A stretch of DNA of 64,000 nucleotides from Oscillospiraceae bacterium (GCA_009785345.1 WQWL01000003.1:17331-81330), one strand, 5' to 3'. Shown: positions 44,783-64,000, counted from the first letter of the stretch. Notes: generated by a model from the sequence alone, not told the origin. Translations and numbers: made by a program.

Positions 44783-44832
44783 AGTGTATTACTTCCTTCT
44801 ACTTATTTTACATCATATGCTGAAAGTATATC

Positions 44833-44860: not shown

Positions 44861-44888
44861 TGTATAATGTTATTTTATTATCCTGTAG

Positions 44889-46451: not shown

Positions 46452-46608
46452 AGTCTTGTCTCCTTAAAAAGTTACAATTTATTCGCTTGCGGTGTGTAGA
46501 TATTAGCATAAAGAAAAACAAAAGTCAACCCATTTTGAAATAATTTTGTAACTTATTGTAATCGTTTGCTTCTAAGGTACACCGCTTCAACTAGTTATTA
46601 GTCACAGA

Positions 46609-46648
46609 TTAGCCGTAATCAAGCGGTATGTCGCGGATGTTATGCGTA
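46609..46648 (+). repeat. 40-nt repeat equal to the two outer flanks of hairpin A copy 1, joined without the hairpin core
   Basis: ttagccgtaatcaagcggtatgtcg matches 17376..17400 at 23/25. The immediately following cggatgttatgcgta matches 17473..17487 at 15/15. Confidence 0.7.
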
Positions 46649-46773
46649 GTGTAATCAGTAACTCCAACTATTCTCTGATGCAAGCAAGTCTGCGTAAACC
46701 TTTACTTTTCACGCTTTTTATGTTATCATCTCGCCTTGTGCGAAACAATAAACTATGTAAGGTAATATTTCTT

Positions 46774-48144
46774 ATGTCACAAAAAGAAAAGCGTATAAAA
46801 CATCCACTAATTAATACTTTTATTACAGTTAAAGGGAATCCTAGAATTGCTCTATACACAGAGCCACTGTGGACCATACCTTTTAACCTGTATACACCAT
46901 TTGTTGCCGTGTATATGGCAGCCTTATTGTTGACGGATATTCAAATCGGCATAGTTGCTTCGGTCTTTTTATTCGTACAAACGATTGCAGCACTCTTTAG
47001 CGGAGCTATTACAGACAAGTTGGGAAGAAGGAAGACAACATTTATTTTCGATGTACTATCATGGACTATACCTTGTTTGTTATGGGCATTTTCGCAGAAT
47101 TTTTGGTGGTTTGTTGTTGGCGCTTCATTTAATGGTTTGATGCAGGTAACAACTAATTCATGGACATGCTTGCTGGTAGAAGATGCCAAAAAAGATTCAT
47201 TAGTCAGAATTTTCTCTCTTTTGCACTTAATTTCCCAAACATCAGTAATATTTGCACCATTAGCTGCACTTTTAGTAAATCAGCTTTCTATTATACCGGC
47301 TCTCAGAATACTTTACTTCTTTTCATTTGTATCAATGACAATTAAGTTCATTATATTATATAAGTACGGAGGTGAAACAGAGGTTGGCAAAGTCCGTATG
47401 AAAGAAACAAAAGGCATGTCAATTTGGAAAATTATGGGTGGATATGGAAAAATATTTATAAAAATATTCACTTCTGGAGATATGATTCTTGCACTTGTTA
47501 TAACAACAGTGTTCAATATAACTGCAATGGTGCATGGGAATTTTTTCGGATTATATGTTACCGGAACTCTCAATCTACCACAACACTACCTTGCATATTT
47601 TCCAATTCTTCGCTCTGCCGTAATTTTTATTTTTATTTATCTGTTTCAACATAAGATGGATAAACTTGGTTTCCGAAACCCTATGCTTATAGGATTGTCC
47701 ATTTTTATTGTAACAAACGTTTTGCTGATTTTCGCTCGTGAGAGTTCATTTTTTATCGAAAGCACTATATTATCGTACTCTATATATGAATACTCAACTT
47801 TAAGTGCTATATTATCCTTTCTTTCATTTGATAACTACTCAACGTTTGTTCTGACGACCTACCTGTTCTTTTATGTTATTCTTGATGCAGTTGCTTTTAG
47901 TTTTGTTATGCCTCGAAGTGATTCCCTTAGACAAATGTTAATTGAACCTTCGGAGAGAGCTCGTATAAGCGGTCTCATGATGGTAATTGTACTTGGCTTG
48001 AGTATACCTTTTGGTTGGGTTGCAGGATGGCTGTCAAATATTGATCGTAGATTTCCATTTATATTAATTATCATATTTCTTATTATAATTTTCGCTGTTA
48101 TTTTAGCCAGTAAGGAAAGATTAATGCGGATAAAGACATCGTAA
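46774..48144 (+). CDS. MFS-type transporter
   Basis: About 12 TM helices. The DKLGRRK motif lies between TM2 and TM3. Start set at the ATG at 46774; the upstream 44 codons of the ORF track cross the repeat and look non-coding. Confidence 0.75.
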   Translation: MSQKEKRIKHPLINTFITVKGNPRIALYTEPLWTIPFNLYTPFVAVYMAALLLTDIQIGIVASVFLFVQTIAALFSGAITDKLGRRKTTFIFDVLSWTIPCLLWAFSQNFWWFVVGASFNGLMQVTTNSWTCLLVEDAKKDSLVRIFSLLHLISQTSVIFAPLAALLVNQLSIIPALRILYFFSFVSMTIKFIILYKYGGETEVGKVRMKETKGMSIWKIMGGYGKIFIKIFTSGDMILALVITTVFNITAMVHGNFFGLYVTGTLNLPQHYLAYFPILRSAVIFIFIYLFQHKMDKLGFRNPMLIGLSIFIVTNVLLIFARESSFFIESTILSYSIYEYSTLSAILSFLSFDNYSTFVLTTYLFFYVILDAVAFSFVMPRSDSLRQMLIEPSERARISGLMMVIVLGLSIPFGWVAGWLSNIDRRFPFILIIIFLIIIFAVILASKERLMRIKTS

Positions 48145-48163
48145 ACCATGACACAATAACAAG

Positions 48164-48197
48164 CAAAGAGGCTGTATCAAAGTGATATGCCTCTTTG
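48164..48197. terminator. Hairpin between convergent MFS and AKR genes
   Basis: CAAAGAGGC - 16 nt - GCCTCTTTG. Confidence 0.5.
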
Positions 48198-48210
48198 TCA
48201 AATGTAAACG

Positions 48211-49395
48211 CTATGCGCCCTTCTTATCCTCCAAAAGTTTGCAGAATTTAGTCAATACGTCCGGTATGTCTATATCTTGAGGACATAGCGGATTACATAC
48301 TCCGCAAGCTATACAGGCTTGTGGCTTTTTATCATCTGCAAGTGAGCTTAGTACATCTTCGACATACCACGTCAATCCGTGATCAGCTTCATTATACGTA
48401 GCTATAAGCATTGGAATGTCTAGTTGTTTAGGACATATTCCACAACAATAGCGACAAGATGTACACGGAATAAATGATGCCATACCATCAACCACTTGCT
48501 CTAAAATTTTCTTTTCAGATTCAGGCATTAAATCAGGATTATTATAGGTTTCAATATTTTCTGCCAGCTGTTCCATTGTTGTCATGCCGCTTATTGTCGT
48601 GCACGCATTAGGAAGTGACTGTACAAAGCGAAATGCCCAAGATGCAGGTGTGTCATTCGGTCTGGCTGCTTTGAGTAAAGCTTCAGCATCCTTGCCGGGC
48701 GCCGCAAGCAGCCCCCCACGAACAGGCTCCATTATAAATACGGGTACATTGTGTTTCGTAATCACTTCGTACTTTTTGCCTGCTTCTTGTAAAGTCCAAT
48801 CTAAGTAGTTGAGTTGTATCATTGTAAACTCAAAGCAACTGTAATGATCTAAGAATTTGTCAATGGTTTCATAGCGACCATGTGCAGAAAAGCCAAAATG
48901 CTTGATTCTTCCTGCTCTTTTTTCTTCTAATAGATAATCAACAATCGCAAACTCTTCATCTGTGTATAAATCATATGTTGTTTCAGCCACATTATGTAGC
49001 ATGTAGAAGTCAAAATATTCTACACCACAATTATCTAACTGACGTTCAAAAACCTCTTTTGCAGTATTGTATGTTCTCTTTTCCATACCCATGGCGGTGA
49101 CATCCATGTGCAGTTTTCCATCTTTATACTCGATGAAATTGCCTGGAAACTTATTTGCAAGAAACCATGTTTCTCGAGGGTATTTTGACAGAGCTTCGCC
49201 AAGTGCTCTTTCTGACTCACCGGCATGATAAAAAAATGCCGTGTCAAAATAATTTACGCCATTTGCCATCGCATAGTCTACTATTTCATTCACTTTTTCT
49301 TGGTCGATTTTCTCTGTCTTTTCATCTACGGGTAGTCGCATACCGCCATATCCAAGTGCGGGTAGCTTTAAATTTTGAAACTCATTATATATCAC
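48211..49395 (-). CDS. Aldo/keto reductase fused to a C-terminal 4Fe-4S ferredoxin-type domain (paralog of 43643..44782)
   Basis: 394 aa. AKR core (LGYGGMRLP..). The C-terminus has CTSCRYCCGICP and CIACGVCNPLCP. Confidence 0.85.
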   Translation of the reverse strand: MIYNEFQNLKLPALGYGGMRLPVDEKTEKIDQEKVNEIVDYAMANGVNYFDTAFFYHAGESERALGEALSKYPRETWFLANKFPGNFIEYKDGKLHMDVTAMGMEKRTYNTAKEVFERQLDNCGVEYFDFYMLHNVAETTYDLYTDEEFAIVDYLLEEKRAGRIKHFGFSAHGRYETIDKFLDHYSCFEFTMIQLNYLDWTLQEAGKKYEVITKHNVPVFIMEPVRGGLLAAPGKDAEALLKAARPNDTPASWAFRFVQSLPNACTTISGMTTMEQLAENIETYNNPDLMPESEKKILEQVVDGMASFIPCTSCRYCCGICPKQLDIPMLIATYNEADHGLTWYVEDVLSSLADDKKPQACIACGVCNPLCPQDIDIPDVLTKFCKLLEDKKGA

Positions 49396-49408
49396 GTATG
49401 TTTCCCCT

Positions 49409-50137
49409 TTAAAATTTATTTACGGCTTCAAATAACGCTTTTCCGATATTTTCGTTTATTATTATGTCCGCATACTTGTCATATGCAGTTTTAGACTTAT
49501 TTATGAGAATAAGATTTTCGCCACTAAAATAGTTGATCATACCTGCTGCCGGATAGACGTTAAGAGATGTTCCACCAACTATAAGCACCTCTGCTGTAGT
49601 TATTGCCCTTACTGCTTTTTTCATAACAGATTGGTCAAGACCTTCTTCGTATAATACCACATCCGGTTTTATAATACCACCGCATAAGCATTGCGGAATA
49701 CCAAGAGAAAGAATTATTTTATCAAGAGGGTATGCTTCATTGCATAGCATACAATAATTTCTTAATATCGAACCATGCAACTCTAGTACATTTACACTTC
49801 CGGCTGATGTGTGTAGACCGTCAACATTTTGTGTTATTACAGCTTTAAGCTTATTTTGTTTTTCTAGTTCTGCTAATGCCAGGTGTGCTTTGTTCGGTTT
49901 TGCGTTGGGATGGAGCATTTTATCTTTGTAGAATCGATAAAACTCCTCGGTATGCGTGTCAAAGAAACTACGCGAGAGCATGGTCTCAGGTGGGTATGAA
50001 TACGATGAATTATACAGTCCATCAGCACTTCGAAAATCTGGTATTCCACTTTCAGTAGAAACACCAGCCCCTCCGAAAAAAACAATATTGTTCGAGTTTT
50101 GTAGTATTTTCGCTAAATCGTTGATTTCTGTGTTCAT
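49409..50137 (-). CDS. cobB: NAD-dependent protein deacylase (Sir2/CobB family)
   Basis: 242 aa. Motifs seen: GAGVSTESGIPDFRS, TQNVDGLH, the catalytic His in LHGS, a Zn ribbon (CMLC..CLCGG), and VGGTSLNVYPAA. Confidence 0.9.
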   Translation of the reverse strand: MNTEINDLAKILQNSNNIVFFGGAGVSTESGIPDFRSADGLYNSSYSYPPETMLSRSFFDTHTEEFYRFYKDKMLHPNAKPNKAHLALAELEKQNKLKAVITQNVDGLHTSAGSVNVLELHGSILRNYCMLCNEAYPLDKIILSLGIPQCLCGGIIKPDVVLYEEGLDQSVMKKAVRAITTAEVLIVGGTSLNVYPAAGMINYFSGENLILINKSKTAYDKYADIIINENIGKALFEAVNKF

Positions 50138-50163
50138 TTACATCCGCTCCTATTCTACAATTT

Positions 50164-50324
50164 ATACTGATCACTAATAGAAAACGTTGATATATTTGTG
50201 AGATTATTTTTCGTCATTCAAGGCGAAAATTCGAAGTAATGCCAGTGGCCTTTCAAGGATTTTCAACGATGAATGACGGTAAATAGCTCGCAAAGATTCA
50301 ATGGTTTCTATTAGTGATTAGTAT
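50164..50324. repeat. Repeat family C: 161-nt foldback element (imperfect ~70-nt inverted repeats)
   Basis: The left arm begins atactgatcactaatagaaaacgttga.. and the right arm ends ..tcaatggtttctattagtgattagtat. The central loop is ~25 nt. The terminal 26 nt recur at 12842..12867. Confidence 0.7.
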
Positions 50325-50400
50325 TAGTCCGTGTTCAGTATCAGCATCAAATATAGTATATCACACTCTATACTAATCAGTAGGCATTTTTGCGGTATAT

Positions 50401-50452
50401 TTTGAGACCTCTAAACTTGCTCCCATATTGGGATAAGTTTGGAGGTCTCAAA
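50401..50452. other. Long perfect-ish stem-loop (about 23 bp) downstream of the methyltransferase gene
   Basis: tttgagacctctaaactt pairs with aagtttggaggtctcaaa (18 bp, one G-U). An inner stem tccca/tggga extends it. No clear U tract on either strand. Confidence 0.5.
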
Positions 50453-50537
50453 TTTGGAGGACAATAGCCTATAAGGCTTCTGCAATTAATCGTGCTAATA
50501 ACTTGCTGCGTCTCACAGCCAACTACACCGATTTATT

Positions 50538-51347
50538 TCACCTTTTACAAAGCAATATAATTTCATTTCCGCCGGGTGGAGATTTGTCATACCAAGAAAA
50601 CTCCTCAATCACAACTAGCCCCGACTTTTTCACTTCGGCACGAAGCTGAGGGCTGTAATAATATTTCATCTGTAAAGGCTCGACCAACCGCTCCACATGC
50701 CCATCGGGATAAGTCATATTATACGCAAGATAGGGATAGATTATTTGATTTACAGTGTCAATTTTTTCGCGGCACTCGTATCGCGCTATGCGGATGTCTG
50801 TTTGTTCATCGACTGTTTCACCTATAAATTCTTCTGCACGACACCAACTACTGTCAAGTGGATTTGCGTAAGGATTGAAAACATTAACGATAAAAATTCC
50901 GTCATCCGTTAAATGTTCACGCACACAAAAAAAAACATTTTCAATATCTTCTCGTGCCGTTACAGATTGAAATGCACGGAATGGAGCAATTATAAGAGCA
51001 AATTTTCGCCCAATTGAAAAGTTCGCCATATTGCCATGGATAATTTCGACACGTTCGGCAAGCCCCTGCTCCTTTGCCACTTCCACGTCTAACTTTTCGC
51101 TGAAAACATTTAACATCTGTTGAGATAAATCCAGTCCAGCAATATGGAAACCTTCTTTTGCTAAAGCCAAAGTCACACGTCCTGTACCACAGCCTAATTC
51201 AAGAATTTCTCCCTTTTCACCATTCTCGCCGCATTGCAATTTTGCGTAATCACGATAAAACGGAATATCGGGCATGGGCTGATTCTTTTCGTAAATGATA
51301 TCATATATTTTTGCCGCTTCACGGTAAACATTTTTTTCGATTGCCAT
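50538..51347 (-). CDS. Class I SAM-dependent methyltransferase
   Basis: 269 aa. Motif I is ILELGCGTGRVTLALA, followed by an acidic loop (GLDLS). Confidence 0.85.
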   Translation of the reverse strand: MAIEKNVYREAAKIYDIIYEKNQPMPDIPFYRDYAKLQCGENGEKGEILELGCGTGRVTLALAKEGFHIAGLDLSQQMLNVFSEKLDVEVAKEQGLAERVEIIHGNMANFSIGRKFALIIAPFRAFQSVTAREDIENVFFCVREHLTDDGIFIVNVFNPYANPLDSSWCRAEEFIGETVDEQTDIRIARYECREKIDTVNQIIYPYLAYNMTYPDGHVERLVEPLQMKYYYSPQLRAEVKKSGLVVIEEFSWYDKSPPGGNEIILLCKR

Positions 51348-51458
51348 TATCTTTCCTTCCTATACTGGCTTTCTCAAGAGACTGTCATTCGAAACGAGTT
51401 GAGGTTCTGTTAATGCCTCGGAAGTCATATTCAGAGCACAATAACCTGCGAACCTAAG

Positions 51459-54400
51459 CTAAAAAACTAACTCAAATGTCTTAATTTCAAAAGGCTTTAT
51501 CTCAAACGTAAACTCGCTTGTATTCTCTGCTATTTCCTTAATACGGTTTTCCAAACAGTCAGTCTCGAATACTTTTGCAACTTTGCTGCGGAGTGTTAAT
51601 ACAGCATTTGTTCTCGTGTTTTCAAACTCGTACATCCTGATAATTACGGAATCGCCTGATTCTGCTTTTTTTACAGTTTCGATGTTAACATTACTGCTGT
51701 TTGTACTCACATAACTGTAGGATGTGGGTGCTGCATCGCATGGCGACTCGATGGCAACAGCATAAGCCGGTGTATTGAGGCAGTGTGCACTTTCTACAGT
51801 ACCGCCCGTTTGCCATGTTCCCAAGTGTGGTAGCAAAGAATAAGTAAACCAATGCTCTTCTTGGTCTGTTGTTTCGTAAGGCTCTATGCCCGATTTTATT
51901 AGAGTCAGGGCTATAACACCGTCATGGATAGCATGACCATACTTACAATCATTTAAGATACTTACACCATAGCCGCCTTCAGAAATATCTGCCCACTTGT
52001 GAGCACAGGTTTCAAAACGCGCCTGATCCCAACTGGTGTTCACATGTGTAGGACGGGAAACATTGCCGAATTGTATATCATAAGTGGCTGCCGGAGACAT
52101 TATATCCGTGCCAAATCGAGCCTTTAGAAGAAGCTGACTCTGTTTCCAATCAACATAGGTTTCAAAATCTATACGGCGAATATTCGCATAAAAATGGATT
52201 TTCTGACTGATAACACTCTCTAAGAATGTACGTTCAACAAGAAGTGTTGCGCGAACCGGACCTGTTTCCAGCCATTTAACTGTTGTGGTTTCATCAACAA
52301 TCCAACTTTTTTCGGTATAATAAATGTCAATATCCCAGTTATCCCATCTCATAGGCTTGTCTTCGTAAACTCGCAGCTCATTGCCCAAGACATCCCCAGT
52401 GAGAACTTCGCGTCCGCTCTCCTTATGGAAAAGTCTGGCAATAAAGCCATTGGTATCGAATTCGGCTTCGTAGAAAGGTGTCTCTATCTTCAAGCCATCA
52501 ATGTTAATCGGGTTGTCGGCATTAGTTTTCTCGGAAACTTTAAGTCCCATAACTCCTTTTGCAGGCATTCCTGAAACATATGCAATCTTACCGCCATCAT
52601 TAGTTTCCTGGCATACTGAAATGCTTCCATCGCCACATACAAGGGCATCAGCATTTATACTACCCGGAATTTCTATGACATCGTCCCGATTGAAGTCCAG
52701 GGTGTTAATAACTGCCAAATCGCCGGAAACATCAGCTACTGCCGAAAGGCGCTCAGTCATAAGTGCATTTGCTTCTTTGCTAAGTTCAGCGTATTCTACC
52801 TTTGTCACATCATACACTTCTTTTATTGATGTTCCGGGAAGAATGTCATGGAACTGGTTTAAGAGTATAACTTCCCACATTGCATCAAGCTCTTTGCGGG
52901 GATAAGGTATATCTTTTGCCAGTACCGAAACAAATTCCAAATCTTGGAGTAGCAGTTCACTTTTGCGGTTTGATCGTTTGTTCCGTGCCATTGATGTATA
53001 TGTTCCGCGATGGTATTCTAAATAAAGCTCGCCCACCCATTTGGGTAGCTCTTTATTGCCAATAGTTCTTTCATAAAGACTGTCGAAATAATCTTTTGAG
53101 TTGCCAAAATGCACTTTTGGAGCTCCATTGACGCCCTTCGACATTCGTTTACCCATTTCGATCATTTCGCGGGTAGGACCACCGCCTCCGTCGCCGAAAC
53201 CATAGGAAATCAATACATCATTATTGATTTCTTTTTGCTGATATCGCTCCCATGCTCCAATTACGCTACAAGGTTGGAGGTATCCGTTGTATGTGGTGGA
53301 AAATGTGTCCGGTGGATTATCGGCACGAGTAGTCGTCACCATGTGTGTAAAAACCTCGCTGCCATCTATGCCGCGCCAGATAAATGTGTCGTAAGGCACA
53401 AGATTAAATTGATTCCAACTCATTTTTGTGGTCATGAAGTAGTCTACACCGCAAAGCTTCATTATCTGTGGCAAAGCTGCACTGTAACCAAAGACATCAG
53501 GGAGCCATAAAATTTTGGAATCGACACCGAATTCGTCCTTAAAAAACTTTTTGCCATACATGAACTGTCTGACGAGAGATTCTCCTGATGCAAGGTTACA
53601 ATCAGGCTCAAGCCACATACCACCCTCTGCTTCCCATCGCCCTTCCGCAGCACGTTCCTTTATCTTTGCGTATAGTGCGGGTGCATGCTCTTGTACGTAT
53701 TTATAGAGCTGGGGTTGGCTTGACATGAATATATACTCCGGATAGTCTTCCATATATTTGAGTACCGTTGCAAAGCTGCGGACAACCTTTTGACGTGTTT
53801 GAGCGACGGTCCACCACCAGGCTACGTCGATATGGGTATGTCCAACGCAAGTAGCGATAATATCCTCATGACCGGCAAGCTTTGTGTACACTTCTTCCTT
53901 TGCAATAACCAATGCATCTTCAATCGATCTGTAAAAACACTCTGAGTGAGGGGTGCGCAGGTCGATTGCATTAACTATTTTTTCAACAGCGACTTCCAAA
54001 TCAATGCGTCGCTTATCGCTTGCGTTCAAACGCGAAATGATTTCAATAGGTACTTTTAAATCATAATAAAGCTCCGTAACAAGGGGTGAAATCTGAGCTA
54101 ACTTCGCGGTTAACTCGAGCTCGCAGGTCTCCGTGCCAGTGTATCCCTGCAAATCGATTCTATATATTTCTCCGGCTTTAGCACATTTTGTTAAAAACAC
54201 ATCTTTATGATTTACATCAAGGGCACACTCAGCCTCCCCGTTTACAAACACCAGAAACTGTGGATTTTTTGCATCCCACCCTGTTGCCTGTGTTGAAAAC
54301 AACAGTGAAAGCGGTTTGCCGTCATAACTTTCCGGAACAGTAATGCTAACTTTAAACCAACTGTTACAGTCCAGTCCTTTCCATTTTTCTGTTTTTGTGT

Positions 54401-54557
54401 CAAACTTGCGCCAAGATACGGAATCGTTGTCTGCTTCTTCTGGTGACCAGAACAGACCGTCTTTAACGAACCAGTCTGTGATTTCGTTGCTTTGAACGAC
54501 AGACAGATTAAGGAGCTCGCGACATATCACCTCTGCCCTTTCTTTTCTGAAATACAT
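51459..54557 (-). CDS. GH38 alpha-mannosidase (no signal peptide)
   Basis: About 1030 aa. GHTHIDVAWWW, the GGMW.EPD.N region and YLEYHRGTYTS are typical GH38 motifs. Start set at MYFRKE.. preceded by AAGGAGGA; the 28 upstream codons of the ORF track were rejected. Confidence 0.9.
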   Translation of the reverse strand: MYFRKERAEVICRELLNLSVVQSNEITDWFVKDGLFWSPEEADNDSVSWRKFDTKTEKWKGLDCNSWFKVSITVPESYDGKPLSLLFSTQATGWDAKNPQFLVFVNGEAECALDVNHKDVFLTKCAKAGEIYRIDLQGYTGTETCELELTAKLAQISPLVTELYYDLKVPIEIISRLNASDKRRIDLEVAVEKIVNAIDLRTPHSECFYRSIEDALVIAKEEVYTKLAGHEDIIATCVGHTHIDVAWWWTVAQTRQKVVRSFATVLKYMEDYPEYIFMSSQPQLYKYVQEHAPALYAKIKERAAEGRWEAEGGMWLEPDCNLASGESLVRQFMYGKKFFKDEFGVDSKILWLPDVFGYSAALPQIMKLCGVDYFMTTKMSWNQFNLVPYDTFIWRGIDGSEVFTHMVTTTRADNPPDTFSTTYNGYLQPCSVIGAWERYQQKEINNDVLISYGFGDGGGGPTREMIEMGKRMSKGVNGAPKVHFGNSKDYFDSLYERTIGNKELPKWVGELYLEYHRGTYTSMARNKRSNRKSELLLQDLEFVSVLAKDIPYPRKELDAMWEVILLNQFHDILPGTSIKEVYDVTKVEYAELSKEANALMTERLSAVADVSGDLAVINTLDFNRDDVIEIPGSINADALVCGDGSISVCQETNDGGKIAYVSGMPAKGVMGLKVSEKTNADNPINIDGLKIETPFYEAEFDTNGFIARLFHKESGREVLTGDVLGNELRVYEDKPMRWDNWDIDIYYTEKSWIVDETTTVKWLETGPVRATLLVERTFLESVISQKIHFYANIRRIDFETYVDWKQSQLLLKARFGTDIMSPAATYDIQFGNVSRPTHVNTSWDQARFETCAHKWADISEGGYGVSILNDCKYGHAIHDGVIALTLIKSGIEPYETTDQEEHWFTYSLLPHLGTWQTGGTVESAHCLNTPAYAVAIESPCDAAPTSYSYVSTNSSNVNIETVKKAESGDSVIIRMYEFENTRTNAVLTLRSKVAKVFETDCLENRIKEIAENTSEFTFEIKPFEIKTFELVF

Positions 54558-54611
54558 ATTGTCATTCCTCCTTAATGTAATTGTGTTTAGTTGCAAAATC
54601 CTGGGAGTTCT

Positions 54612-54648
54612 CAGGAGCTTGGGACAAAAGTTCCGCCCCAAGCTCCTG
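54612..54648. other. 12-bp stem-loop between paralog 1 and the mannosidase gene
   Basis: CAGGAGCTTGGG - 13 nt - CCCAAGCTCCTG. No downstream U tract in the direction of transcription. Confidence 0.4.
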
Positions 54649-54659
54649 CAAAAAATTAG

Positions 54660-57600
54660 TTATGGCTCTAAGGGCAAAGCATGACCATCCGGATTAAAGT
54701 CTACGATAAACGAAACAGAAAGCACTTCGTTTACATTACCTGGTGCATGCCAAACCACTGCATAAATTGCATGAGGGTCATTGCCAGCTCTGACCAGATT
54801 TGCAGCTCTTATGTCTGCTTCATTAAGTCTGGTTCTGCTGTCTATTCTTGTCTGTGGATTTGCCGATCCACCGCGTGGTTGTGGGAAAATCCATACGGGT
54901 GCATCCATATTATCCGGCAACGTGTATGTAACAGGAGTTTCTACTGTCCCTCTCACTGATGCGCCAATCGTAAATACTCCGTCATTATAAGAGGTTACAC
55001 GACCAACTACAAGATTTTGGCGTCCCGCAATGAAGCTCGAAGATGTGCTGTTAAACAGCCAGTTTACAGCTGCATTTACTGTACCATTTGTCCAGGTAGC
55101 CTCTCTTCGTATGCCCTGCATGGCGCTAGACATAATCAGATTTTGAGTTCCTGTTACACCATTGGCAAGTGTGAACAATGGGAAAGTCGTTCCCATATGC
55201 TCAACTACTTCGTTGACACGTATGATCTGCCCAATATTGATGTGTTCACTCTCAAGTAGTCCACCATCGCTTATTGCTGCACCGGGAGGAATGGCAATAT
55301 TTACCATGCCTCTGCCCGTAACAAATGCGGTTCCAAGAGTGTGATTTACACCACCTATTGCGATATTACCTCCGGTAACACCGGTTACCATCGCGAAAGT
55401 TCCTGTAGGAAGGAAGCATAAGCATGGGTCAAAATCACAAACGTGGCAATCGCAAGTGAATATACAGTATGCGTCGCATATTGCACATGGTCTGCATCTG
55501 TCGTTACATTCGGCTTCACAATGTGCACAAGGTACACAGTTCGCGTCACATTCCATTCCGCAGACAGGGCAAATTACGCATTCACAATTACAGACTGCAT
55601 CGCAGATGTCACATGAGTCAATAAACAGCACACAGGTTTGGCATAACTCGCATACTTCACAATCCGGAAACAGCTGGCAGCACGAATATGCAAGTGCAAC
55701 TACAGACAACTGTCTTGTGCGTGTTTCCGGATCGCCACGCCAGTCGCAGAATCCCTGTGTATCGCAGTATAGTTTGTAATACTGATACGCAGTTGTGTTA
55801 CCTAGTAAGTCAAAGACAAAGAACATGCGGTTGTAGTTGGAATAGTCATTAGTCAAACCGGTATATATGACTGTCCATGTTTCTCCGCCATCATTTGAGC
55901 CAGAGAGTGTCCAGCCGTTACCTAAACGACGACCTGGACCCATTGTACCACTATCATTCGACGTTCCGAATATCAAACGGGTTGCTACAAACGGTTCGTC
56001 ATATCTCCATATTGCCCAGAAAGAACCATGCGTATCCATATTCTGGCAGTATTTTGTAAGTGTGCCGGCAACTCCGCCACCAACGCCAGTATAGTCGAAT
56101 AATCGTGTCGCTCCTTCTGCGCCACGGGGATTAGCTGCGGTTACAGCACCAAAACCAAATCCACCGTCAACAAATGTAGGATTCATGTTTACTCTTGCAT
56201 TGACAACCGCACCGGTCGTATTCGGTCTTCCTCCACGCGCGGGGGCATGAGCTGTTGGATTACCATCTCTGTCTACAGGTCTTCCATTATGCCATGCACG
56301 TGCATTGGCGGCCTCTTCAAGAGAAGCGTAACCGAGTCTCCAATAATTTTGCAAGTCTGCACCTAACTCGGCGCTCCAGTCCAAATATTGTGCCCAAAGC
56401 TCATCAATGCTGAAACCTGTCAGTTCTATAATTTGCGGTGTCCTGTTGGCTCCCGTTCCTGTACCCTGTATGAAAGATCCCCCGCGTCCTGTGGGACCAG
56501 CGGCTGTATTCGCTCTGACTGCATTATGCAAATCGCGGTTAAAGTTGGATACATAGTTTTCCGGGAATGTTGAGGCAATTCTTGAGTCCGGATTCGTCCA
56601 ATACTCAGAATGTCTTTCAACCCATCTGAAGAAAGCCGCACCTACCCTGTATGTTTGTGTAAAGCTTTGACCCGATATTCCGAAGTCCGGGATTGTAAAT
56701 CCGGCTTCTCTGTTAAATATACCCATGTAAGGTCTTAACAAATCGGTAAAGTTCTCGTGAATCCAAATAACAACACCACTGCCTCCACCGGGAACAAGAC
56801 TTGCACCTCCATAACGTTGTCCCGCATGAACCAACTCATGTGTTTGTGCGTCCATATCCCAGTGATGTGTCGAACGCCAGCCCGGATCCGTACTTGTGAT
56901 GTAGCGATCTCCATCAGCCGTGTATGACACAATTGCACTGTGCTGTGCGCCCCTGTTAAGCCAACTGAGAGCTACACCATTGGTGTAACTTGACCACCAA
57001 GCAATACTGTCTCTCATATCAAGCTCATACCATTGTGGGCTTAGAGGTGCGGTTTTCCATTCAAATATGGGTTCAAACACTATGTTGAACGCATAGATGA
57101 ATCGGTCTATCACTTCGTCCGGTACTAATGCCCAGTTACCTACATTATTTGGAGAGCTTCCGCCTACTGTTCCTACAGGCTGCCCTCTGTCTCTACCGGG
57201 TCCAGGCATTCTGAAGTTCAAAAACAGATCTGCCGGTGAAGCATCATCTATATGCTTTCCACAACCATCGCCGTCCATACAGTATTCATAGTTGAACGTG
57301 GTAACACCAAACCTCTCACGATTTTCCCATGTTGCATTTGGAGTTTCTGCTACTGTCGGTTGTGTCCATACTGCACCAAAATCGCAGTGATGTCTGAAAG
57401 TGAATCTGAAGGGATTATACGGAACGTTATCCACGCCTGTACCACCTCTCCAGTACGTATTATGACTGAATCCCCAGTCATAGGGAGAATACCCATACGT
57501 ATACATACCCCAACAGGTATCACAGTCGGTGCATTTCATGGTTGTGTATCCCCTAGTGCCACCACCAGTGAACACAGGAAATAAATCCGGGCAATTTGCG

Positions 57601-58454
57601 CCCAGTGGGCAAAATTGTGGACATGAGAGGTAATCTCCGCCACCGCCACCTATCCGTAGAGGGTTAAGAGGGTCGACTTCACCGGATTCTAATTCCGGAG
57701 CTGGACGTGCTATATTCGTAAGTGCCGGGAAATTTTCTAAAGCATTGTCACGTCCGGCAGGAGGGAGATTCGGGTTCCAGGAAGGGTTAGGATGAATTCC
57801 CGGAGTCCAATTGTTAACACCAGTGTTATGCGGACATCTTACCGGAGTAACTCTGGTAACATGTGTACCAGCCGTTGGCGGCACAATATGTTCTACCCAG
57901 TCATGATCTACACAGCATGTGATACGAATCGCATCACGATTGATGTTAAGATTTCCCACCAATGTACTTTCGTGGCATTCTGTGAATGTCACGCCTGCTC
58001 TGACTTCAAATCTTGCATTGTTAATAATTGTTCCGTTGTTGTTAAGCCTAGAATTTGTCACATTTTCCACATGACCATTGTTTGTAAGAATTCCGCCATC
58101 AGCGATGGTGATCGTACCGCCCGAGCTTCCTTGATTATTGATGCGACCGCCCGGGAGTACTACTATTCTACCTTCGATGATGAGCTCTGCGTTACCCTGA
58201 ATATTAAGAGTTGTTTCTACATACAGCGTGCTACCTGCAGGTACTACAAACGGGCTATGCTGTACAAAGATGCCCAAGTTACCTCGAGTTGAAAGGACTG
58301 CATCACCACTTTCTAGTAGTGTACGCAGGTTGTTCGGGTTTGTGCCGGTGAATGGAATCGCTTCGGACGTAGTTTCACTTGTGTTTGCTATGGCTGTAGC
58401 CGCGAGTGAAAGCGATAATATAATGATGAGTGCAATAATTAGTATTTTTTTCAA
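54660..58454 (-). CDS. Giant secreted multidomain protein, paralog 1: N-terminal shared module, BSP-like HExxH peptidase domain, discoidin-like domain, Cys-rich array, unknown C-terminal domain
   Basis: 1264 aa. TTG start 8 nt after AAAGGAG. Signal peptide MKKILIIALIIILSLSLAATAIA. HELVH at 56826..56840 is followed by WIHENFTDLLR. The discoidin-like domain reads FWAIWRYDEP..GNGWTLSGSNDGGETW..YYKLY. Confidence 0.8.
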   Translation of the reverse strand: MKKILIIALIIILSLSLAATAIANTSETTSEAIPFTGTNPNNLRTLLESGDAVLSTRGNLGIFVQHSPFVVPAGSTLYVETTLNIQGNAELIIEGRIVVLPGGRINNQGSSGGTITIADGGILTNNGHVENVTNSRLNNNGTIINNARFEVRAGVTFTECHESTLVGNLNINRDAIRITCCVDHDWVEHIVPPTAGTHVTRVTPVRCPHNTGVNNWTPGIHPNPSWNPNLPPAGRDNALENFPALTNIARPAPELESGEVDPLNPLRIGGGGGDYLSCPQFCPLGANCPDLFPVFTGGGTRGYTTMKCTDCDTCWGMYTYGYSPYDWGFSHNTYWRGGTGVDNVPYNPFRFTFRHHCDFGAVWTQPTVAETPNATWENRERFGVTTFNYEYCMDGDGCGKHIDDASPADLFLNFRMPGPGRDRGQPVGTVGGSSPNNVGNWALVPDEVIDRFIYAFNIVFEPIFEWKTAPLSPQWYELDMRDSIAWWSSYTNGVALSWLNRGAQHSAIVSYTADGDRYITSTDPGWRSTHHWDMDAQTHELVHAGQRYGGASLVPGGGSGVVIWIHENFTDLLRPYMGIFNREAGFTIPDFGISGQSFTQTYRVGAAFFRWVERHSEYWTNPDSRIASTFPENYVSNFNRDLHNAVRANTAAGPTGRGGSFIQGTGTGANRTPQIIELTGFSIDELWAQYLDWSAELGADLQNYWRLGYASLEEAANARAWHNGRPVDRDGNPTAHAPARGGRPNTTGAVVNARVNMNPTFVDGGFGFGAVTAANPRGAEGATRLFDYTGVGGGVAGTLTKYCQNMDTHGSFWAIWRYDEPFVATRLIFGTSNDSGTMGPGRRLGNGWTLSGSNDGGETWTVIYTGLTNDYSNYNRMFFVFDLLGNTTAYQYYKLYCDTQGFCDWRGDPETRTRQLSVVALAYSCCQLFPDCEVCELCQTCVLFIDSCDICDAVCNCECVICPVCGMECDANCVPCAHCEAECNDRCRPCAICDAYCIFTCDCHVCDFDPCLCFLPTGTFAMVTGVTGGNIAIGGVNHTLGTAFVTGRGMVNIAIPPGAAISDGGLLESEHINIGQIIRVNEVVEHMGTTFPLFTLANGVTGTQNLIMSSAMQGIRREATWTNGTVNAAVNWLFNSTSSSFIAGRQNLVVGRVTSYNDGVFTIGASVRGTVETPVTYTLPDNMDAPVWIFPQPRGGSANPQTRIDSRTRLNEADIRAANLVRAGNDPHAIYAVVWHAPGNVNEVLSVSFIVDFNPDGHALPLEP

Positions 58455-58490
58455 AATGCAAAACTCCTTTCATAGGCTTCAGGTTGTCGG

Positions 58491-58519
58491 CATGATTAAC
58501 CGACAACCTGCGAAGCCGT
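58491..58519 (-). other. Stem-loop after paralog 2 (homologous to 62331..62358)
   Basis: aggttgtcgg - 9 nt - ccgacaacct. It lacks a U tract. Confidence 0.4.
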
Positions 58520-58544
58520 TTTGATTATTGATTAGTGTTTAGTA

Positions 58545-61500
58545 TTAATCGCAGGCAACACGAATAGCTCCCCGATTAATGTTAAGATTTCCTGTAACAA
58601 CGCTGTCACAGCACTCCAGGAATGTCACGCCTGTTCTGACTTCAAATCTTGCGTTGTTAATTATTGTTCCGTGATTGTTGAGTCTAGAGTTTGTCACGTT
58701 CTCTACATGACCGTTGTTGACCAGCACCCCACCATCTGCGATGGTAATTGTACCGCCTCCATTGCCGCTACCCTGATTGTTGATTCTTCCACCAGGAAGT
58801 ACTACAACACGACCCTCAATGATGAGTTCGGCATCTCGTTGTATGTTTAATGCGGTTTCAATATACAGTGTTCTGCCTGCAGGCACTGTAAATGGACTGT
58901 GCTGTGTGAAGATGCCCAAGTTACTCCGAGTTGAAAGAACCACATTGTTGCTTGCTAGCTGTGTAAGCAGATGGTTCGGATTAGTGACAGTGGAAGGAAT
59001 CGGTGGATTCTCATTTTCAGTTAGATAAATAACTGAGAGTTGAATCGCTACACTATCCGGACCTCTTGGAGCTTCAAGTCTGTAGTGTGAGAATGCTCTC
59101 ATGTTATGCGAGAAATCCACTCTAAAGAACCTGTTGTTAAAGTTTGAGTAGTCGTCAGCTAAACCTGTGTACAGAACATGCCATGTTTCACCATCGGTAG
59201 AACCGGAAACGGTCCATCCGTCGCCCATACGGCGCGGCAATGATAGATTATCATGGGTTGCGAATATAAGGCTGTCGGCTATAAATGCCTCTTCGTATCT
59301 CCACTCTACCCAGAAATCATCTGTCGTAGTTACAACTTGGAAGGCTGTGCCGTTTCCGCCTGCGGGAAGTTGCGCTGCCGGCCATCCGCTAGCGGTGAAT
59401 CTGCCTCTCGGACCACCGTCCGGATTAAATCCGGTAGCAGCACCTTGTGGACCTAATCTCCTGTCAAACAGATTGTACGCCTGCCTGTTGTGCCATGAAC
59501 CAAAGCCTGCGTTAGCCGGGTTGCTGAAATCTGCATGACCGGCAGTAAACACACCTGGTACTGGTCCATGCTCAAATATTGGGTCAAGACGTAGTGTTCT
59601 GTCGCCAACGGCTTCCGTAAGTGTATAGTAACCTGTTGCCCAACCTTCGGTGAACTCCTCGTAGCGTGCATGTTCATATATCATGAATTGTGCCCATAGC
59701 TCATGTTTGGTATAACCGGTGAGCCAGTAATACTGCCTGTGGTCTGCGAAATACATTCCCTCTTCTTTAACAGTTGAGTTCATAGCTTGTGCGAAGTGGT
59801 AGAAGTCCGGATTGCCCGTTCTTTCCCTTACAACATCTATGTATTGACTGTCAACCCAGAACCAGAACGCAGCGCCAACTCTATAAGATAGTGTCCAACC
59901 AAAGAGGTAGTGCGGGCTACCTGGCTCAAAGTAAAGAATCGGCGGATTTCTCCAGTCGGCTTGATCATTGAAGAGACCAATCCATTCTCTCATCATATCC
60001 GTCATATTTTCATGGATATGCAAGGGTACAGTGCCGCCGTAAAGCTGTGCATTGTGAATCAGCTCGTGGGTCATTGCATCGGTATCCCAAGGTTGAGCAC
60101 GCAACCATCGTTGACCGACACCGGATTGAAGACCTGATGCCCAGGCAATTGAGTTTATACCTGCGTCAAGCACGTATGTTACCGGGTTGATTGTACCGGG
60201 CAGATGAGATGGATTTGTAATAGTTTCGTCAAACATAAAGTAGCTTATAGGTACCCATAAGACATTAAAGCTATGGACAAATCTATCCATCATCGCACTT
60301 GGACCTACACCATCCCTCTCATAAATATCCGTCCATGTCAGTACTGTTGACCAAGGAAGTCTATTGGCGGGCATTGGAACCGGGTCAAGGAAGGTGTGGT
60401 AAATTTCTGATACAGGTACATATTCACCACAGGTGGTACATTCTTCCCACCACCAATAGTCCGGATTGAAGCCCATTGCTTCAACACCCGGTCCCGGGTT
60501 TTGTCTGTGATCGGGATTCTCCGGATTAATCCAGTCCCATACACCCCATCCAGCGTCGAAGCCATCTCTGGGAGCTTGCTTGAAGTTTCCTTCAAAGAAG
60601 TTTCCGCTGCCTGTGTGTCTTGCATTTGGATCAAGAGGCGTAAAGTCCCTACGGGAAGCTACATTTTCATAGCCACATGTAGTACAAACATCTGATGTAA
60701 AGCCTTGATCTCCGCATGTAGCCGGTGTGACTACCGGTGCAAACACGTGGGTACAGGTCCAGGTTTCGGATGCAATTCTGACTGATGCAAGCTGTATTAC
60801 ATTGCCCATTGCAGGGGCAGGTGACCAAAGTCTGTAATATTGATATGCTGTGGTGTTATCAGGCAAGTCTGCAACGAAGAATCTAAAGTTGTATGGTCCG
60901 GTTTCATCTCTTTCGCCTAAATGTAACAATGTCCATTCTGCTATTGGTAAGTTCGGATCATTAGTGGCTCTGAGATACCATCCTGTATTCATTCGACGGT
61001 AATCTTGACCGGCGTTTCCATGGTTATCGTTAGCATTTTGCCAGATAAAGCGAGATGCAACGACAGGCTCGGGATATCTCCACTCTGCCCAGAATAGAGC
61101 ATTCTGTGCTTGTGTGGATACGAATTTCTGGTTTTGATTATCCGTAAATAGGAATTGTGGAGGCTCACCAGCGGGGAAGCCAGTAGCCGGACCGCGATGG
61201 AATGCATGACCGTGCACCAAAGTATGGCTGCCCACGGCTTCTGCAAGGGTCATATAACCTGTAGCGTGATCAGGCTCTCCGCCAGCGCCCCTTAATAGTC
61301 TCCAGGCATCTTCAAGTGAAGCACCGATTCTACTATAGAAGAAACCAGCTCTTAGATCATCACATACCCAGGTGGTCATGTTGGTGCCGCCGTGTCTTAA
61401 AGGATAAGTACCAAGGCGTGCATGTTGAGCCATATCCCGGATTGCATTTACACCATATTCGCCAAATTCTTGGGCAATGAATATGAGCAATTGTGCTCCA

Positions 61501-62186
61501 GATGCATCGGCTAGTGGGTTTGTAGTTGCTCCTGCGGGCACCCAGTTTCCTTGCTCTACATACTGACCAAAGTGCACTCTTCCGAATACGCGAAGACCAT
61601 TAGTAATCCATGACGGGAATGTTCCAACTCCGCCGGGGGTAGGATATGGAGCACCCTGCGCCAATTGAACAAGACCGGGAATAATAATGTCTGTGTTATA
61701 TGCATTTGCACCGGAGATTTGAGCAAGTGTAACGCCTACACGTCCGTAGCCCGGTGTTGGGTTACCGGCGGCACCTGGAAGCACAACGGTAGTGTTGCCT
61801 AATACTATTCTTACAGGGAATCTTACACCGTCGCCATAAAATGCGACAATTTCTGCCCAAACTGCTGCAAACGTCGATTCAATACGTTCTACAACATAGG
61901 TATCAACGGTATCCCATGCGCCTTCAAGTGTAAGGTATGGCAAGGGTCCATCAAAGGCATCCGGGTTCTCTGTGTCATCCGTGTCATCTGCATCATCAAG
62001 TGTTAACGGATATTCAGAGTCTTCTGGGGAAGGGTACTGTGAGTAATTTTCTGCCAGGTCTTCGTCTGAAGTTTCATCATAATATGCAAAAGCAGTCAAA
62101 AATGAAAACATCAATGAGAAAACCAGTAAAACTGATAATACATTTCTAAGTTTCTTGCGAGATTCGGCAAATATTTTTCCTGTCAT
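58545..62186 (-). CDS. Giant secreted multidomain protein, paralog 2: degenerate BSP-like domain, discoidin-like, Cys-pair linker, active-looking BSP-like HExxH domain, discoidin-like, C-terminal shared module
   Basis: 1213 aa counted from the ATG at 62186 (MTGKIF.., SD GAGAGG). The hydrophobic signal region is LSVLLVFSLMFSFLTAFA. HELIH at 60054..60068 is followed by HIHENMTDMMRE. Confidence 0.8.
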   Translation of the reverse strand: MTGKIFAESRKKLRNVLSVLLVFSLMFSFLTAFAYYDETSDEDLAENYSQYPSPEDSEYPLTLDDADDTDDTENPDAFDGPLPYLTLEGAWDTVDTYVVERIESTFAAVWAEIVAFYGDGVRFPVRIVLGNTTVVLPGAAGNPTPGYGRVGVTLAQISGANAYNTDIIIPGLVQLAQGAPYPTPGGVGTFPSWITNGLRVFGRVHFGQYVEQGNWVPAGATTNPLADASGAQLLIFIAQEFGEYGVNAIRDMAQHARLGTYPLRHGGTNMTTWVCDDLRAGFFYSRIGASLEDAWRLLRGAGGEPDHATGYMTLAEAVGSHTLVHGHAFHRGPATGFPAGEPPQFLFTDNQNQKFVSTQAQNALFWAEWRYPEPVVASRFIWQNANDNHGNAGQDYRRMNTGWYLRATNDPNLPIAEWTLLHLGERDETGPYNFRFFVADLPDNTTAYQYYRLWSPAPAMGNVIQLASVRIASETWTCTHVFAPVVTPATCGDQGFTSDVCTTCGYENVASRRDFTPLDPNARHTGSGNFFEGNFKQAPRDGFDAGWGVWDWINPENPDHRQNPGPGVEAMGFNPDYWWWEECTTCGEYVPVSEIYHTFLDPVPMPANRLPWSTVLTWTDIYERDGVGPSAMMDRFVHSFNVLWVPISYFMFDETITNPSHLPGTINPVTYVLDAGINSIAWASGLQSGVGQRWLRAQPWDTDAMTHELIHNAQLYGGTVPLHIHENMTDMMREWIGLFNDQADWRNPPILYFEPGSPHYLFGWTLSYRVGAAFWFWVDSQYIDVVRERTGNPDFYHFAQAMNSTVKEEGMYFADHRQYYWLTGYTKHELWAQFMIYEHARYEEFTEGWATGYYTLTEAVGDRTLRLDPIFEHGPVPGVFTAGHADFSNPANAGFGSWHNRQAYNLFDRRLGPQGAATGFNPDGGPRGRFTASGWPAAQLPAGGNGTAFQVVTTTDDFWVEWRYEEAFIADSLIFATHDNLSLPRRMGDGWTVSGSTDGETWHVLYTGLADDYSNFNNRFFRVDFSHNMRAFSHYRLEAPRGPDSVAIQLSVIYLTENENPPIPSTVTNPNHLLTQLASNNVVLSTRSNLGIFTQHSPFTVPAGRTLYIETALNIQRDAELIIEGRVVVLPGGRINNQGSGNGGGTITIADGGVLVNNGHVENVTNSRLNNHGTIINNARFEVRTGVTFLECCDSVVTGNLNINRGAIRVACD

Positions 62187-62330
62187 TTGTTGAAAACCTC
62201 TCAAAATTATATTCCTCGTAGTAAGGACTTTATTTCATGATAGTTCCTTAGGAGCGAGGTCTCCTCTTGTTGCTGCATTAATTATGTGCAACATGGGTAA
62301 ACGGTTCATCAAGTTCTTTGAAGATGCCTG

Positions 62331-62358
62331 GGTTGCCGGTATTATTTGACCGGCAACC
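62331..62358 (-). other. Stem-loop after paralog 3
   Basis: ggttgccgg - 10 nt - ccggcaacc. Confidence 0.4.
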
Positions 62359-62401
62359 TCGGCACAATCGTACGTTTGTGAAGCGTGCTCGCGGAGCATA
62401 T

Positions 62402-64000
62402 TTATTCGCAGGCAATGCGGATCGCTCCACGATTGATGTTAAGATTTCCTGTTACGACGCTATCGCAGCATTCCAGGAATGTCACACCTGTTCTGACTTC
62501 AAATCTTGCGCGGTTAGCGATGGTTCCGAAGTTATTGAGAGTAGAGTTAGTCACATTCTCTACATGACCATTATTGACAAGAGCGCCACCCTCAGCAATG
62601 GTAATTGTACCGCCTCCGGCACCGCTACCTTGGTTGTTGATTCTTCCGCCCGGAAGCACGACAACGGCACCTTTAATGATAAGTTCAGCATCGCGTTGTA
62701 TATTTAATGTGGTCTCAATATACAATATCCTGTCTGCCGGCACTATAAATGGACTGTGTTGCGTAAAGATACCCAAGTTGCCACGGGTTGAAAGGACAGC
62801 ATCACCACTTTCCAACAGTGTAAGCAGGTGGTTCGGATTGGTGGCGGCAAATGGGGTTGCGGGCTCTGCTGTGGTCAGGTGGATTGATGAAAGTTGGACA
62901 TTGTTACCCATTGGGTTAACCGGTACTGCCTGATTTGGTACGTCTCCACCCCTTGGGGATTCAAGTCTGAAGTGAGTAAAAGTTCCTCTGTTTTCCACTG
63001 GGATATCGACTCTGAAGAATCTAAAATTAGCATTCCGTGAATCGTATCTCGTGCCAACATACAGTTCTACCCAATCCTCGCCTTCACCGGCACTACCTAA
63101 GAGTCTCCAACCATCGCCCATTCTGCGAAATTGTGTGGCGTTATCATTGGCAGTCTGGAATATGAAGCTATCCGCTGTTACTGGTGCTTCATACATCCAC
63201 TCAACCCAGAAATTCTGCGGCGTCGCATTGAATTTTTGATTCTGGTTCGCGGTGAATAGTTGATGAGAGTCTTCGTTGCCGTTGGCTAGCATACCAGGTC
63301 CACCACGTAAGTGTACAGGAGCATTTTCAGGGGCTACCAGAATACTGTCACCCACTGCTTCTGAAAGTGTCGCATAGCCTTCTGGTCCTTGTAAGCGACC
63401 TACCATGTGAGCCGCACCGAATTCCATGTATTGTGCCCACAATTCATCATATGTATAACCTGTTAGATTGATAAACTGTCTGCCGTCCATATGGAATCTG
63501 CCGTCCAGCTTCATGATGTTGTTTAACGCAGATTGGAAGTGTTCCCATGGGGTGTGGTCATGCCTACGGTTATACACTAGAGAGCTTTCTGCGATAAGAT
63601 TTCTGCCTTCAGGGTTTCTGTTCAGTTGCGGGAATGCCTGACTGCCAACCGTTGGATCATTTGCAAATCCGCCATAGGTATTGTTAATCCAGTTGAAGAA
63701 TGCGGCAGTTGTACTGTATCCGGCGAGGAAGCCTCTTGTATGTTGAGCATGAGCCGGATTATTGGATTGCGGGTGGAACAACGGATTAGAGGTGTTGCTC
63801 CGTCTCTGGAACATGTCAAACTTTTCCCTATCGTTGTCGGCAAGACCTTCCAATATCCACATAGGCACATAAGTAAACAACTGGAAGTTATGACTGAGTT
63901 CGTGAGTCTGAACAGCAGTCCATGGGGATGTAAACAGATGCGCACGCGCTATGCCAGCGACATTACCGGAAGCCCAACCTGTAGGCCCACCCGGCCATCC
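62402..64000 (-). CDS. Giant secreted multidomain protein, paralog 3 (5' end outside the window): BSP-like HExxH domain, discoidin-like domain, C-terminal shared module
   Basis: The frame stays open from 63880 to the window edge; my translation of 63881..64000 is GWPGGPTGWASGNVAGIARAHLFTSPWTAVQTHELSHNFQ. HELSH at 63890..63904 is followed by WILEGLAD. The ORF track Met at 63880 is internal. Confidence 0.8.
   Translation of the reverse strand, partial: GWPGGPTGWASGNVAGIARAHLFTSPWTAVQTHELSHNFQLFTYVPMWILEGLADNDREKFDMFQRRSNTSNPLFHPQSNNPAHAQHTRGFLAGYSTTAAFFNWINNTYGGFANDPTVGSQAFPQLNRNPEGRNLIAESSLVYNRRHDHTPWEHFQSALNNIMKLDGRFHMDGRQFINLTGYTYDELWAQYMEFGAAHMVGRLQGPEGYATLSEAVGDSILVAPENAPVHLRGGPGMLANGNEDSHQLFTANQNQKFNATPQNFWVEWMYEAPVTADSFIFQTANDNATQFRRMGDGWRLLGSAGEGEDWVELYVGTRYDSRNANFRFFRVDIPVENRGTFTHFRLESPRGGDVPNQAVPVNPMGNNVQLSSIHLTTAEPATPFAATNPNHLLTLLESGDAVLSTRGNLGIFTQHSPFIVPADRILYIETTLNIQRDAELIIKGAVVVLPGGRINNQGSGAGGGTITIAEGGALVNNGHVENVTNSTLNNFGTIANRARFEVRTGVTFLECCDSVVTGNLNINRGAIRIACE

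Follow-up and report, generated by a model that had tools for sequence, protein, structure and literature searches.

Fibre-degrading Clostridia of the gut and rumen are known to organise their secreted enzymes in one of two ways, through dockerin-cohesin pairs or, in one species, through the CBM37 module. Here we describe a module of about 148 amino acid residues that occurs three times within a stretch of 64,000 nucleotides from an Oscillospiraceae bacterium (GCA_009785345.1 WQWL01000003.1:17331-81330; the whole stretch is referred to below as the window) and recurs in many other proteins of the same genome. On balance, we favour the reading that this module is a common address or tethering tag on the large secreted enzymes of the lineage, all copies binding one common ligand, and that such a tag would best be read as a non-homologous analogue of the CBM37 of Ruminococcus albus or of dockerins.

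CBM37 belongs to a single species, in which 51-102 copies are distributed over many enzyme families, seldom together with a dockerin, and attach the enzymes to the cell surface (PMC4081043). Its binding extends to polysaccharides as well as to cells (Xu et al. 2004 and Ezer et al. 2008, as summarised in PMC4081043). CBM37 and the module described here have much in common: both are lineage-restricted and occur in tens of copies per genome, as a rule at the C-terminus and now and then in tandem, and both are found on many unrelated glycoside hydrolases (GH), polysaccharide lyases (PL) and carbohydrate esterases as well as on non-catalytic proteins. The hosts are in both cases Oscillospiraceae-type Clostridia, and co-occurrence with a dockerin is seen once per strain for CBM37 and once in this genome for the module. 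The two differ in length (about 100 residues against about 148) and in fold (a fibronectin-type-III hint against a beta-helix), and binding has been demonstrated experimentally for CBM37 whereas that of the module is putative. Homology between them was rejected, as an hhalign comparison of a 43-copy module profile with the last 157 residues of the R. albus 7 pRUMAL02 protein gave a probability of 0.1%, the boundary of the CBM37 region being that of the published GH11-CBM22-GH10-CBM37 architecture rather than of a CAZy model (the protein itself shows GH11-CBM_4_9-GH10). A weak fibronectin-type-III match was the only fold hint for that region. The module was absent both from a plasmid collection including pRUMAL01 and pRUMAL02 of R. 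albus 7, searched by tblastn, and from pRUMAL01 searched with the module profile.

Type I dockerins resemble the module in being conserved terminal tags on many secreted enzymes, occasionally N-terminal or internal, that stand beside substrate-specific CBMs; they differ in consisting of paired calcium-binding loop-helix motifs, some 60-70 residues in all, instead of a beta-helix and in having a cohesin partner. SLH, CWB2 and choline-binding repeats likewise occur in tens of copies at either terminus of diverse secreted proteins, as an alternative to sortase, but have no relation to the module in sequence or fold. CBM89, a beta-helix that binds xylan (PMC8810776), and the tapirins (4wa0, 6n2b, 6n2c) are, like the module, non-catalytic right-handed parallel beta-helices found on or beside carbohydrate-active enzymes. 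In contrast to the module, CBM89 has 14 turns in about 400 residues and belongs to one xylanase family in Bacteroidaceae, the tapirins are stand-alone adhesins, and neither is a multi-copy tag.

Distribution and carriers of the module

In the window, the module is carried by P1, P2 and P3, three large genes that lie in tandem, head to tail, on the minus strand. The copies, as delimited by the profile, are:

57915..58352, minus strand: module of P1, N-terminal, at about residues 35-180; profile match 1.6e-86
58548..58991, minus strand: module of P2, C-terminal; profile match 2e-91; query for the structure model
62405..62851, minus strand: module of P3, C-terminal; profile match 8.3e-92

The copies of P2 and P3 run to the stop codon and that of P1 follows directly after the signal peptide. 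Gene calls and profile therefore agree with the initial annotation, made from the DNA alone, in placing the module at the C-terminus of two paralogs and at the N-terminus of the third, and the limits given there fall within a few codons of the profile boundaries.

Further copies, for which the initial annotation had suggested a genome-wide tblastn search, proved numerous. This search returned dozens of matches, and profile searching of six-frame open reading frames (ORFs) counted 53 strong copies, with 54 in an independent search. The window copies are 45-71% identical to those of at least 50 other proteins of the genome. Every complete carrier has a signal peptide, and in about 46 carriers the module is the last domain, followed by a tail of 0-13 residues that is often acidic and holds neither a transmembrane segment nor an LPXTG motif. 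Copies in other positions are that of P1, that of a 351-residue protein (residues 33-173), one at residues 115-251, and an internal one at residues 1179-1325 of 2525. Since these non-C-terminal copies are scattered over a tree of 51 copies, the module must have been relocated several times independently. Genes with the module make up 6.2% of the genome, and the 80 ORFs that reach 1200 residues or more include 37 carriers, so that it marks nearly half of the genome's largest proteins. It is present on none of the genome's roughly 20 proteins with LPXTG-type sortase signals.

The carriers are strikingly diverse. With the module region as query, 62 proteins were retrieved, and among their other domains are glycoside hydrolases of families GH3, GH8, GH10, GH16, GH26, GH30, GH43, GH53 and GH85, rhamnogalacturonan and PL8 lyases, peptidases of families S8, S15 and M28, a glycerophosphodiester phosphodiesterase (GDPD) and a metallophosphatase. 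Many of these chains also bear CBM_4_9, CBM6 or F5/8-type modules. From such a spread of carrier families, an address tag is to be expected rather than a substrate-specific binding module. The initial annotation had proposed, as speculation, a docking or oligomerisation unit that assembles the three window proteins. Either terminus is tolerated, and a docking-type role is still plausible, but one private to the three proteins is not supported: unrelated secreted proteins, at least 53 of them in this genome, bear the module, and any partner must therefore be common to all carriers.

Judging from sequence searches, the module appears to be confined to one uncultured lineage. The MetRS encoded in the window is at most 73% identical to that of any species representative, the best matches coming from gut and rumen bins of uncultured Oscillospiraceae and Clostridiales. 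None of 40 relatives, among them 18 of the same genus, had the full module. Nor did it turn up in samples of 400 genomes from the family and 400 from the class, where beta-helix matches were weak and incomplete; some 840 other Clostridia genomes were covered in all. One module-derived peptide motif, a narrow query, found no relative among 185,579 species genomes. A profile search of 1.84 billion representative proteins gave 371 matches at E<=0.001, of which 112 were at <=1e-30, and many of these were the genome's own proteins. The strong matches thus amount to about 112 clusters that hold the module, about 10 of them N-terminally. Those from outside this genome include small proteins with an N-terminal module, P0063, which has two modules in tandem, and P0127, in which an N-terminal module precedes Flg_new, DUF11 and three SLH repeats. 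Weaker matches, spread over several stretches, came from giant surface proteins containing many beta-helix units; one such protein has a dockerin at its end. The ESM Atlas returned unnamed clusters only, with scores up to 0.90 and low recognition.

The initial annotation had also raised a match to a known anchoring or repeat domain, and no confident one was found: no match in Pfam or NCBIfam reached threshold, and with the module profile none was obtained against all PDB sequences at E up to 1. By these profile comparisons the module is absent from the curated libraries searched (Pfam and NCBIfam). In single scans of 43 copies the commonest match was Fil_haemagg (PF05594), with 26 of 43 copies, the best at E 1.8e-4 and, among the scores listed, below the 21.5-bit cut-off, and 2 of 43 matched PATR (PF12951). 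These sub-threshold matches are consistent with distant beta-helix kinship, not membership. The type I dockerin (PF00404) matched 0 of 43 module copies at E up to 1, and this library did detect genuine dockerins in other parts of the genome; SLH (PF00395) matched neither the modules nor anything else in the genome.

The genome has a dockerin-cohesin set of its own, with 4 dockerins and 7 cohesins, and six sortases. It is unusual for cohesins to be in the majority, and the surplus ones are sockets without known plugs. The cohesin proteins whose C-termini lie on the contig (contigs C51 and C129) end in LPXTG-type sortase signals. The protein encoded by G000:C28:1-2571, which is cut at its 5' end by the contig edge, combines a type I dockerin, a cohesin and a C-terminal module; no other protein of the genome unites module and dockerin, and this one could link the two systems as an adaptor. 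In a small protein, G000:C10:12013-13065 (350-351 residues), the signal peptide is followed by the module, by a domain of about 100 residues without a family match and by a long tail rich in Glu, Asp and Tyr. Its relative P0082, from a second organism, is by eye roughly 60% identical, and the two are candidates for the hub or anchor of the system.

Genes bearing the module also differ in composition, with a G+C content (GC) of 0.46 against 0.40 for the genome and a tetranucleotide correlation with the rest of only 0.72. The same step is seen within the window at about 52 kb, between 1..52000 and 52000..64000. It could reflect amino acid composition or foreign origin. A binning artefact was rejected, since with the module genes masked the contigs that carry them have a GC of 0.400 against 0.399 and the same tetranucleotides. 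The window also carries the housekeeping genes for MetRS, ProRS and FtsK.

Predicted fold and conserved polar face

AlphaFold2, given a 43-copy alignment with the P2 copy as query, produced a model with a predicted local distance difference test score (pLDDT) of 96.5 and a predicted template modelling score (pTM) of 0.91. The model consists of a short N-terminal helix followed by six three-stranded rungs, a capped right-handed beta-helix. The beta-solenoid that the initial annotation had guessed at thus found its counterpart in a confident six-rung prediction that is not disordered. A Foldseek search of the PDB with this model gave nothing significant, the IcsA autochaperone region being in the list. 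An exhaustive structure aligner matched generic right-handed beta-helices, best of all the TibA passenger (Z 13.4) and further Pet (Z 12.1), the C-terminal domain of a Caldicellulosiruptor adhesin (Z 11.5), Hbp (Z 11.0), the bactofilin core (Z 10.7, root-mean-square deviation (rmsd) 1.8 over 89 residues), the C-terminal domains of tapirins (Z 8.8 and 8.6) and the CBM89 structure 7jvi (Z 8.5, rmsd 3.5). The autotransporter passengers TibA, Pet and Hbp, the best structural matches at Z 11-13.4, differ from the module in that the latter is a short capped six-rung unit without a translocator barrel. Two candidates from among these folds were rejected. Bactofilin (PF04519), a beta-helix that polymerises in the cytoplasm, gave no Pfam match despite the close core superposition, and the complete carriers have signal peptides; CBM89 had no match in the PDB sequence search, its likeness in fold is generic, and the module has 6 rungs, not 14.

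Along the stacked second strands of the model, hydrophobic residues point inward while the invariant N56, R76, N78 and E104 and the near-invariant R122 point outward (model numbering), with the invariant R126 just after the last of these strands. In the model, this arrangement suggests one conserved exposed polar face made up of these residues, and because the invariant polar residues sit outward on stacked strands, we predict that it is the binding face. A second pattern of conservation concerns the cysteines. One Cys after the fifth rung and one at the C-terminus co-occur perfectly, with both present in 17 of 51 copies (including one whose terminal Cys lies just beyond the alignment) and neither in the other 34. 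This covariation points to a disulfide that would lock the last rung in a Cys-bearing subfamily to which the window trio belongs. The terminal Cys residues, which had been taken as conserved in the module, are accordingly a feature of this subfamily only.

An address tag weighed against other roles

As a tag, the module would act after Sec export of its carriers, each copy binding the same ligand through the exposed polar stripe on one sheet (N56, R76, N78, E104, R122 and R126), and in this way the enzymes would be retained at the envelope of the cell or within a common assembly. The position independence of the module argues for a binding domain rather than a processed C-terminal sorting signal. 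As for the ligand, if the tag reading holds, about half of our expectation falls on a cell-wall or capsule glycopolymer, and the remainder is about equally divided between a protein receptor, for which the genome's surplus sortase-anchored cohesins would be candidates, and self-association.

Several points weigh against this reading. P0127 joins its N-terminal module to three SLH domains, and is thus already an anchor; the C28 protein joins its module to a dockerin and a cohesin, already an anchoring device. These fusions mildly favour a binding head or adaptor over a plain wall anchor. Moreover, the organism is uncultured and the cell-surface location of the carriers is predicted; the inward and outward assignment of residues follows from strand periodicity, by comparison of the alignment with the model strands, and not from coordinates; and the source genome is a fragmented draft of 3.5 Mb, 86% complete in 237 contigs, for which all copy counts are floors.

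A bolder form of the tag reading, which we offer tentatively, is a hitherto unknown enzyme-display system in which the six-rung tag would replace dockerins on about 50 secreted enzymes and dock them by its polar face. The receptor could then be a wall glycopolymer, the surplus sortase-anchored cohesins, or anchor proteins that themselves bear the module. If a tag of this kind were confirmed, it would be a third independent solution in the family, beside cellulosomes and CBM37, for keeping degradative enzymes at the cell surface, and an unrelated beta-helix in this role would show how readily address systems get re-invented. It would also account for one near-constant segment in three window paralogs that otherwise diverge fast. 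Domain censuses of this lineage that count dockerins, SLH and LPXTG alone would miss its main secretome tag, and the module offers an annotation handle for about 110 otherwise unexplained protein tails. The compact and very confidently modelled fold could be of use in enzyme immobilisation or display.

The alternative that survives best, though we consider it unlikely, is a broad-specificity carbohydrate-binding or adhesin module like the tapirins or CBM89, which would attach the enzymes not to the producer cell but to particles such as plant fibre or mucus. Beta-helices can bind polysaccharide, as the xylan-binding CBM89 demonstrates (PMC8810776), and its structure 7jvi was matched at Z 8.5; the C-terminal domains of the Caldicellulosiruptor adhesin (Z 11.5) and of tapirins (Z 8.8 and 8.6) rank among the better structural matches; the SLH-anchored P0127 presents the module at its distal N-terminus; and CBM37 itself binds polysaccharides as well as cells (PMC4081043). 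However, no polymer is common to the substrates of such carriers as the peptidases, the phosphodiesterase, the phosphatase and the N-glycan endoglycosidase. Dedicated CBMs are already present on many carriers, the module is on no sortase-anchored protein although this would sometimes be expected for substrate targeting, and it has no sequence relation to CBM89 or to any PDB entry.

A role without binding is in our view improbable. Here the module would serve secreted chains of great length as a stable folding nucleus or as an end cap resistant to proteases, much like the autochaperone segment at the end of autotransporter passengers. The top fold matches are indeed autotransporter passengers (TibA 13.4, Pet 12.1 and Hbp 11.0) and the Foldseek list holds the IcsA autochaperone region, the module mostly comes out of the Sec channel after the rest of the chain, and in one third of the copies the last rung seems to be locked by the covarying Cys pair. 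Yet the module also works N-terminally and internally, a mere cap would not need an invariant exposed stripe of polar and charged residues, and the beta-helix matches are generic, with nothing significant in Foldseek. In the Oscillospiraceae, moreover, a lineage regarded as monoderm, no outer membrane is expected.

Divergence of the window copies and features of the three genes

For the module copies, codon alignments gave nucleotide identities of 80% between P2 and P3 and of 73% for P1-P2 and P1-P3, with protein identities of 84% between P2 and P3 and 78% between P1 and either. The initial annotation had estimated roughly 75-85% by eye, and the long identical DNA runs it described were found in all three copies in the DNA alignment. 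In BLASTP, a block of about 150 residues (P1 residues 26-180 against the C-termini of P2 and P3) was 74-75% identical, and the other alignable parts of the three proteins were 23-35% identical. The module is thus more conserved than the rest of the genes, as had been supposed, at 78-84% protein identity in the codon alignments against 26-35% for the other homologous parts.

The cause that had been suggested, recent duplication or gene conversion, was not supported. Codon alignment of the P2 and P3 modules gave a proportion of synonymous differences (pS) of 0.54, a nonsynonymous divergence (dN) of 0.10 and a synonymous divergence (dS) of about 0.95, and the pairs with P1 gave pS 0.64-0.66 and dN 0.16, where pS saturates at about 0.75. 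Across the window copies, dS was about 0.95-1.6 and dN/dS about 0.1. Outside the module, P2 and P3 differ at pS 0.63-0.89 and dN 0.3-1.0 in windows of 75 codons, with synonymous sites saturated. For calibration, pS was computed for every pair of 51 module copies in the genome (1275 pairs), with a median of 0.75 and a 5th percentile of 0.63; only P2-P3 lies clearly below this background. Because dN/dS in the module is about 0.1 and synonymous differences are high, its excess identity is explained mainly by purifying selection and not by recent conversion. The coalescence of P2 and P3, as dated by synonymous sites, is clearly later than background yet old (dS about 0.95).

In a maximum-likelihood tree of the 51 copies, the three window copies form one clade (support 99/98), within which those of P2 and P3 are sisters (100/94). 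The N-terminal copy of P1 thus arose from the local lineage, apparently as an offshoot of that of P2 and P3 and not from elsewhere in the genome. The idea of a private docking or oligomerisation unit of the three paralogs, alike through recent duplication or gene conversion, is very hard to credit, for although the window copies are each other's closest relatives (clade 99/98), the P2-P3 pS of 0.54 is under the 5th percentile of module pairs, a shared 3' hairpin suggests that the flank was in the duplicated unit and P0063 is a natural tandem two-module protein, at least 50 other proteins have the module at 45-71% identity, a dS of about 0.95-1.6 is old, and the synonymous divergence of the P1 copy is near background. 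Elsewhere in the genome, on contigs C31, C6 and C16, tandem arrays of module genes contain pairs at pS 0.11-0.35, far younger than the window trio, and duplication or conversion of the tag is therefore ongoing there.

The two hairpins that lie downstream of P2 and P3 are:

58489..58519, minus strand: hairpin between the P2 stop and the P1 start; -20.6 kcal/mol, z -6.0
62329..62358, minus strand: hairpin downstream of P3; -28.6 kcal/mol, z -7.1

The initial annotation had described these stem-loops as homologous, and they are indeed stable and related, differing by one compensatory change from T:A to C:G. No third hairpin with that stem sequence exists in the genome, so the two are unique. The lack of a run of U after either of them sets the pair apart from intrinsic terminators of the classical kind, and their role may be in RNA stability or in processing between the genes. 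Their sharing fits a tandem duplication, as read from the DNA, of a unit that took in the 3' flank.

The genes themselves are as follows:

54660..58454, minus strand: P1, 1264 residues; signal peptide, module, HExxH at residue 539, cysteine array and C-terminal domain (from ORF and translation)
58545..62204, minus strand: P2, 1219 residues; HExxH at residue 713, discoidin-like regions and C-terminal module
62402..64000 and on to window-equivalent 66196 (contig C3 79732..83526), minus strand: P3, 1264 residues; HExxH at residue 765 and C-terminal module

A Sec-type signal peptide is present in all three proteins, and the HExxH motif occurs once in each. P2 has an alternative ATG start at 62186, and P1 has its own ribosome-binding site and a TTG start 90 nucleotides past the P2 stop. 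The P2/P1 junction is flanked by two module copies, the last domain of P2 and the first of mature P1. Searches of Pfam and NCBIfam with P1-P3 found no family above cut-off; a fragment of P3, alone among the paralogs, gave a weak match to the BSP-type peptidase (PF04450) at E 0.022 and 15 bits, under the 23.8-bit cut-off. A structure model of the HExxH region of P2, made from an 8-row alignment, had a pLDDT of 41.6 and was not used, and P2 without its module found no match in the 40 relatives.

The N-terminal half of P2, and also that of P3, may hold a degenerate HExxH domain from which the motif has been lost (61185..61937 compared with 59625..60407). There, the stretch TDIIIPGLVQLAQG of P2 aligns to TDAMTHELIHNAQL, in an alignment that is not significant (E 0.12). 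Finally, a protein encoded elsewhere in the genome (G000:C9:16616-21274) extends beyond its module by a 59-residue tail with about 15 cysteines in CxxC-type spacing, which resembles the internal cysteine array of P1 (window 55416..55682).

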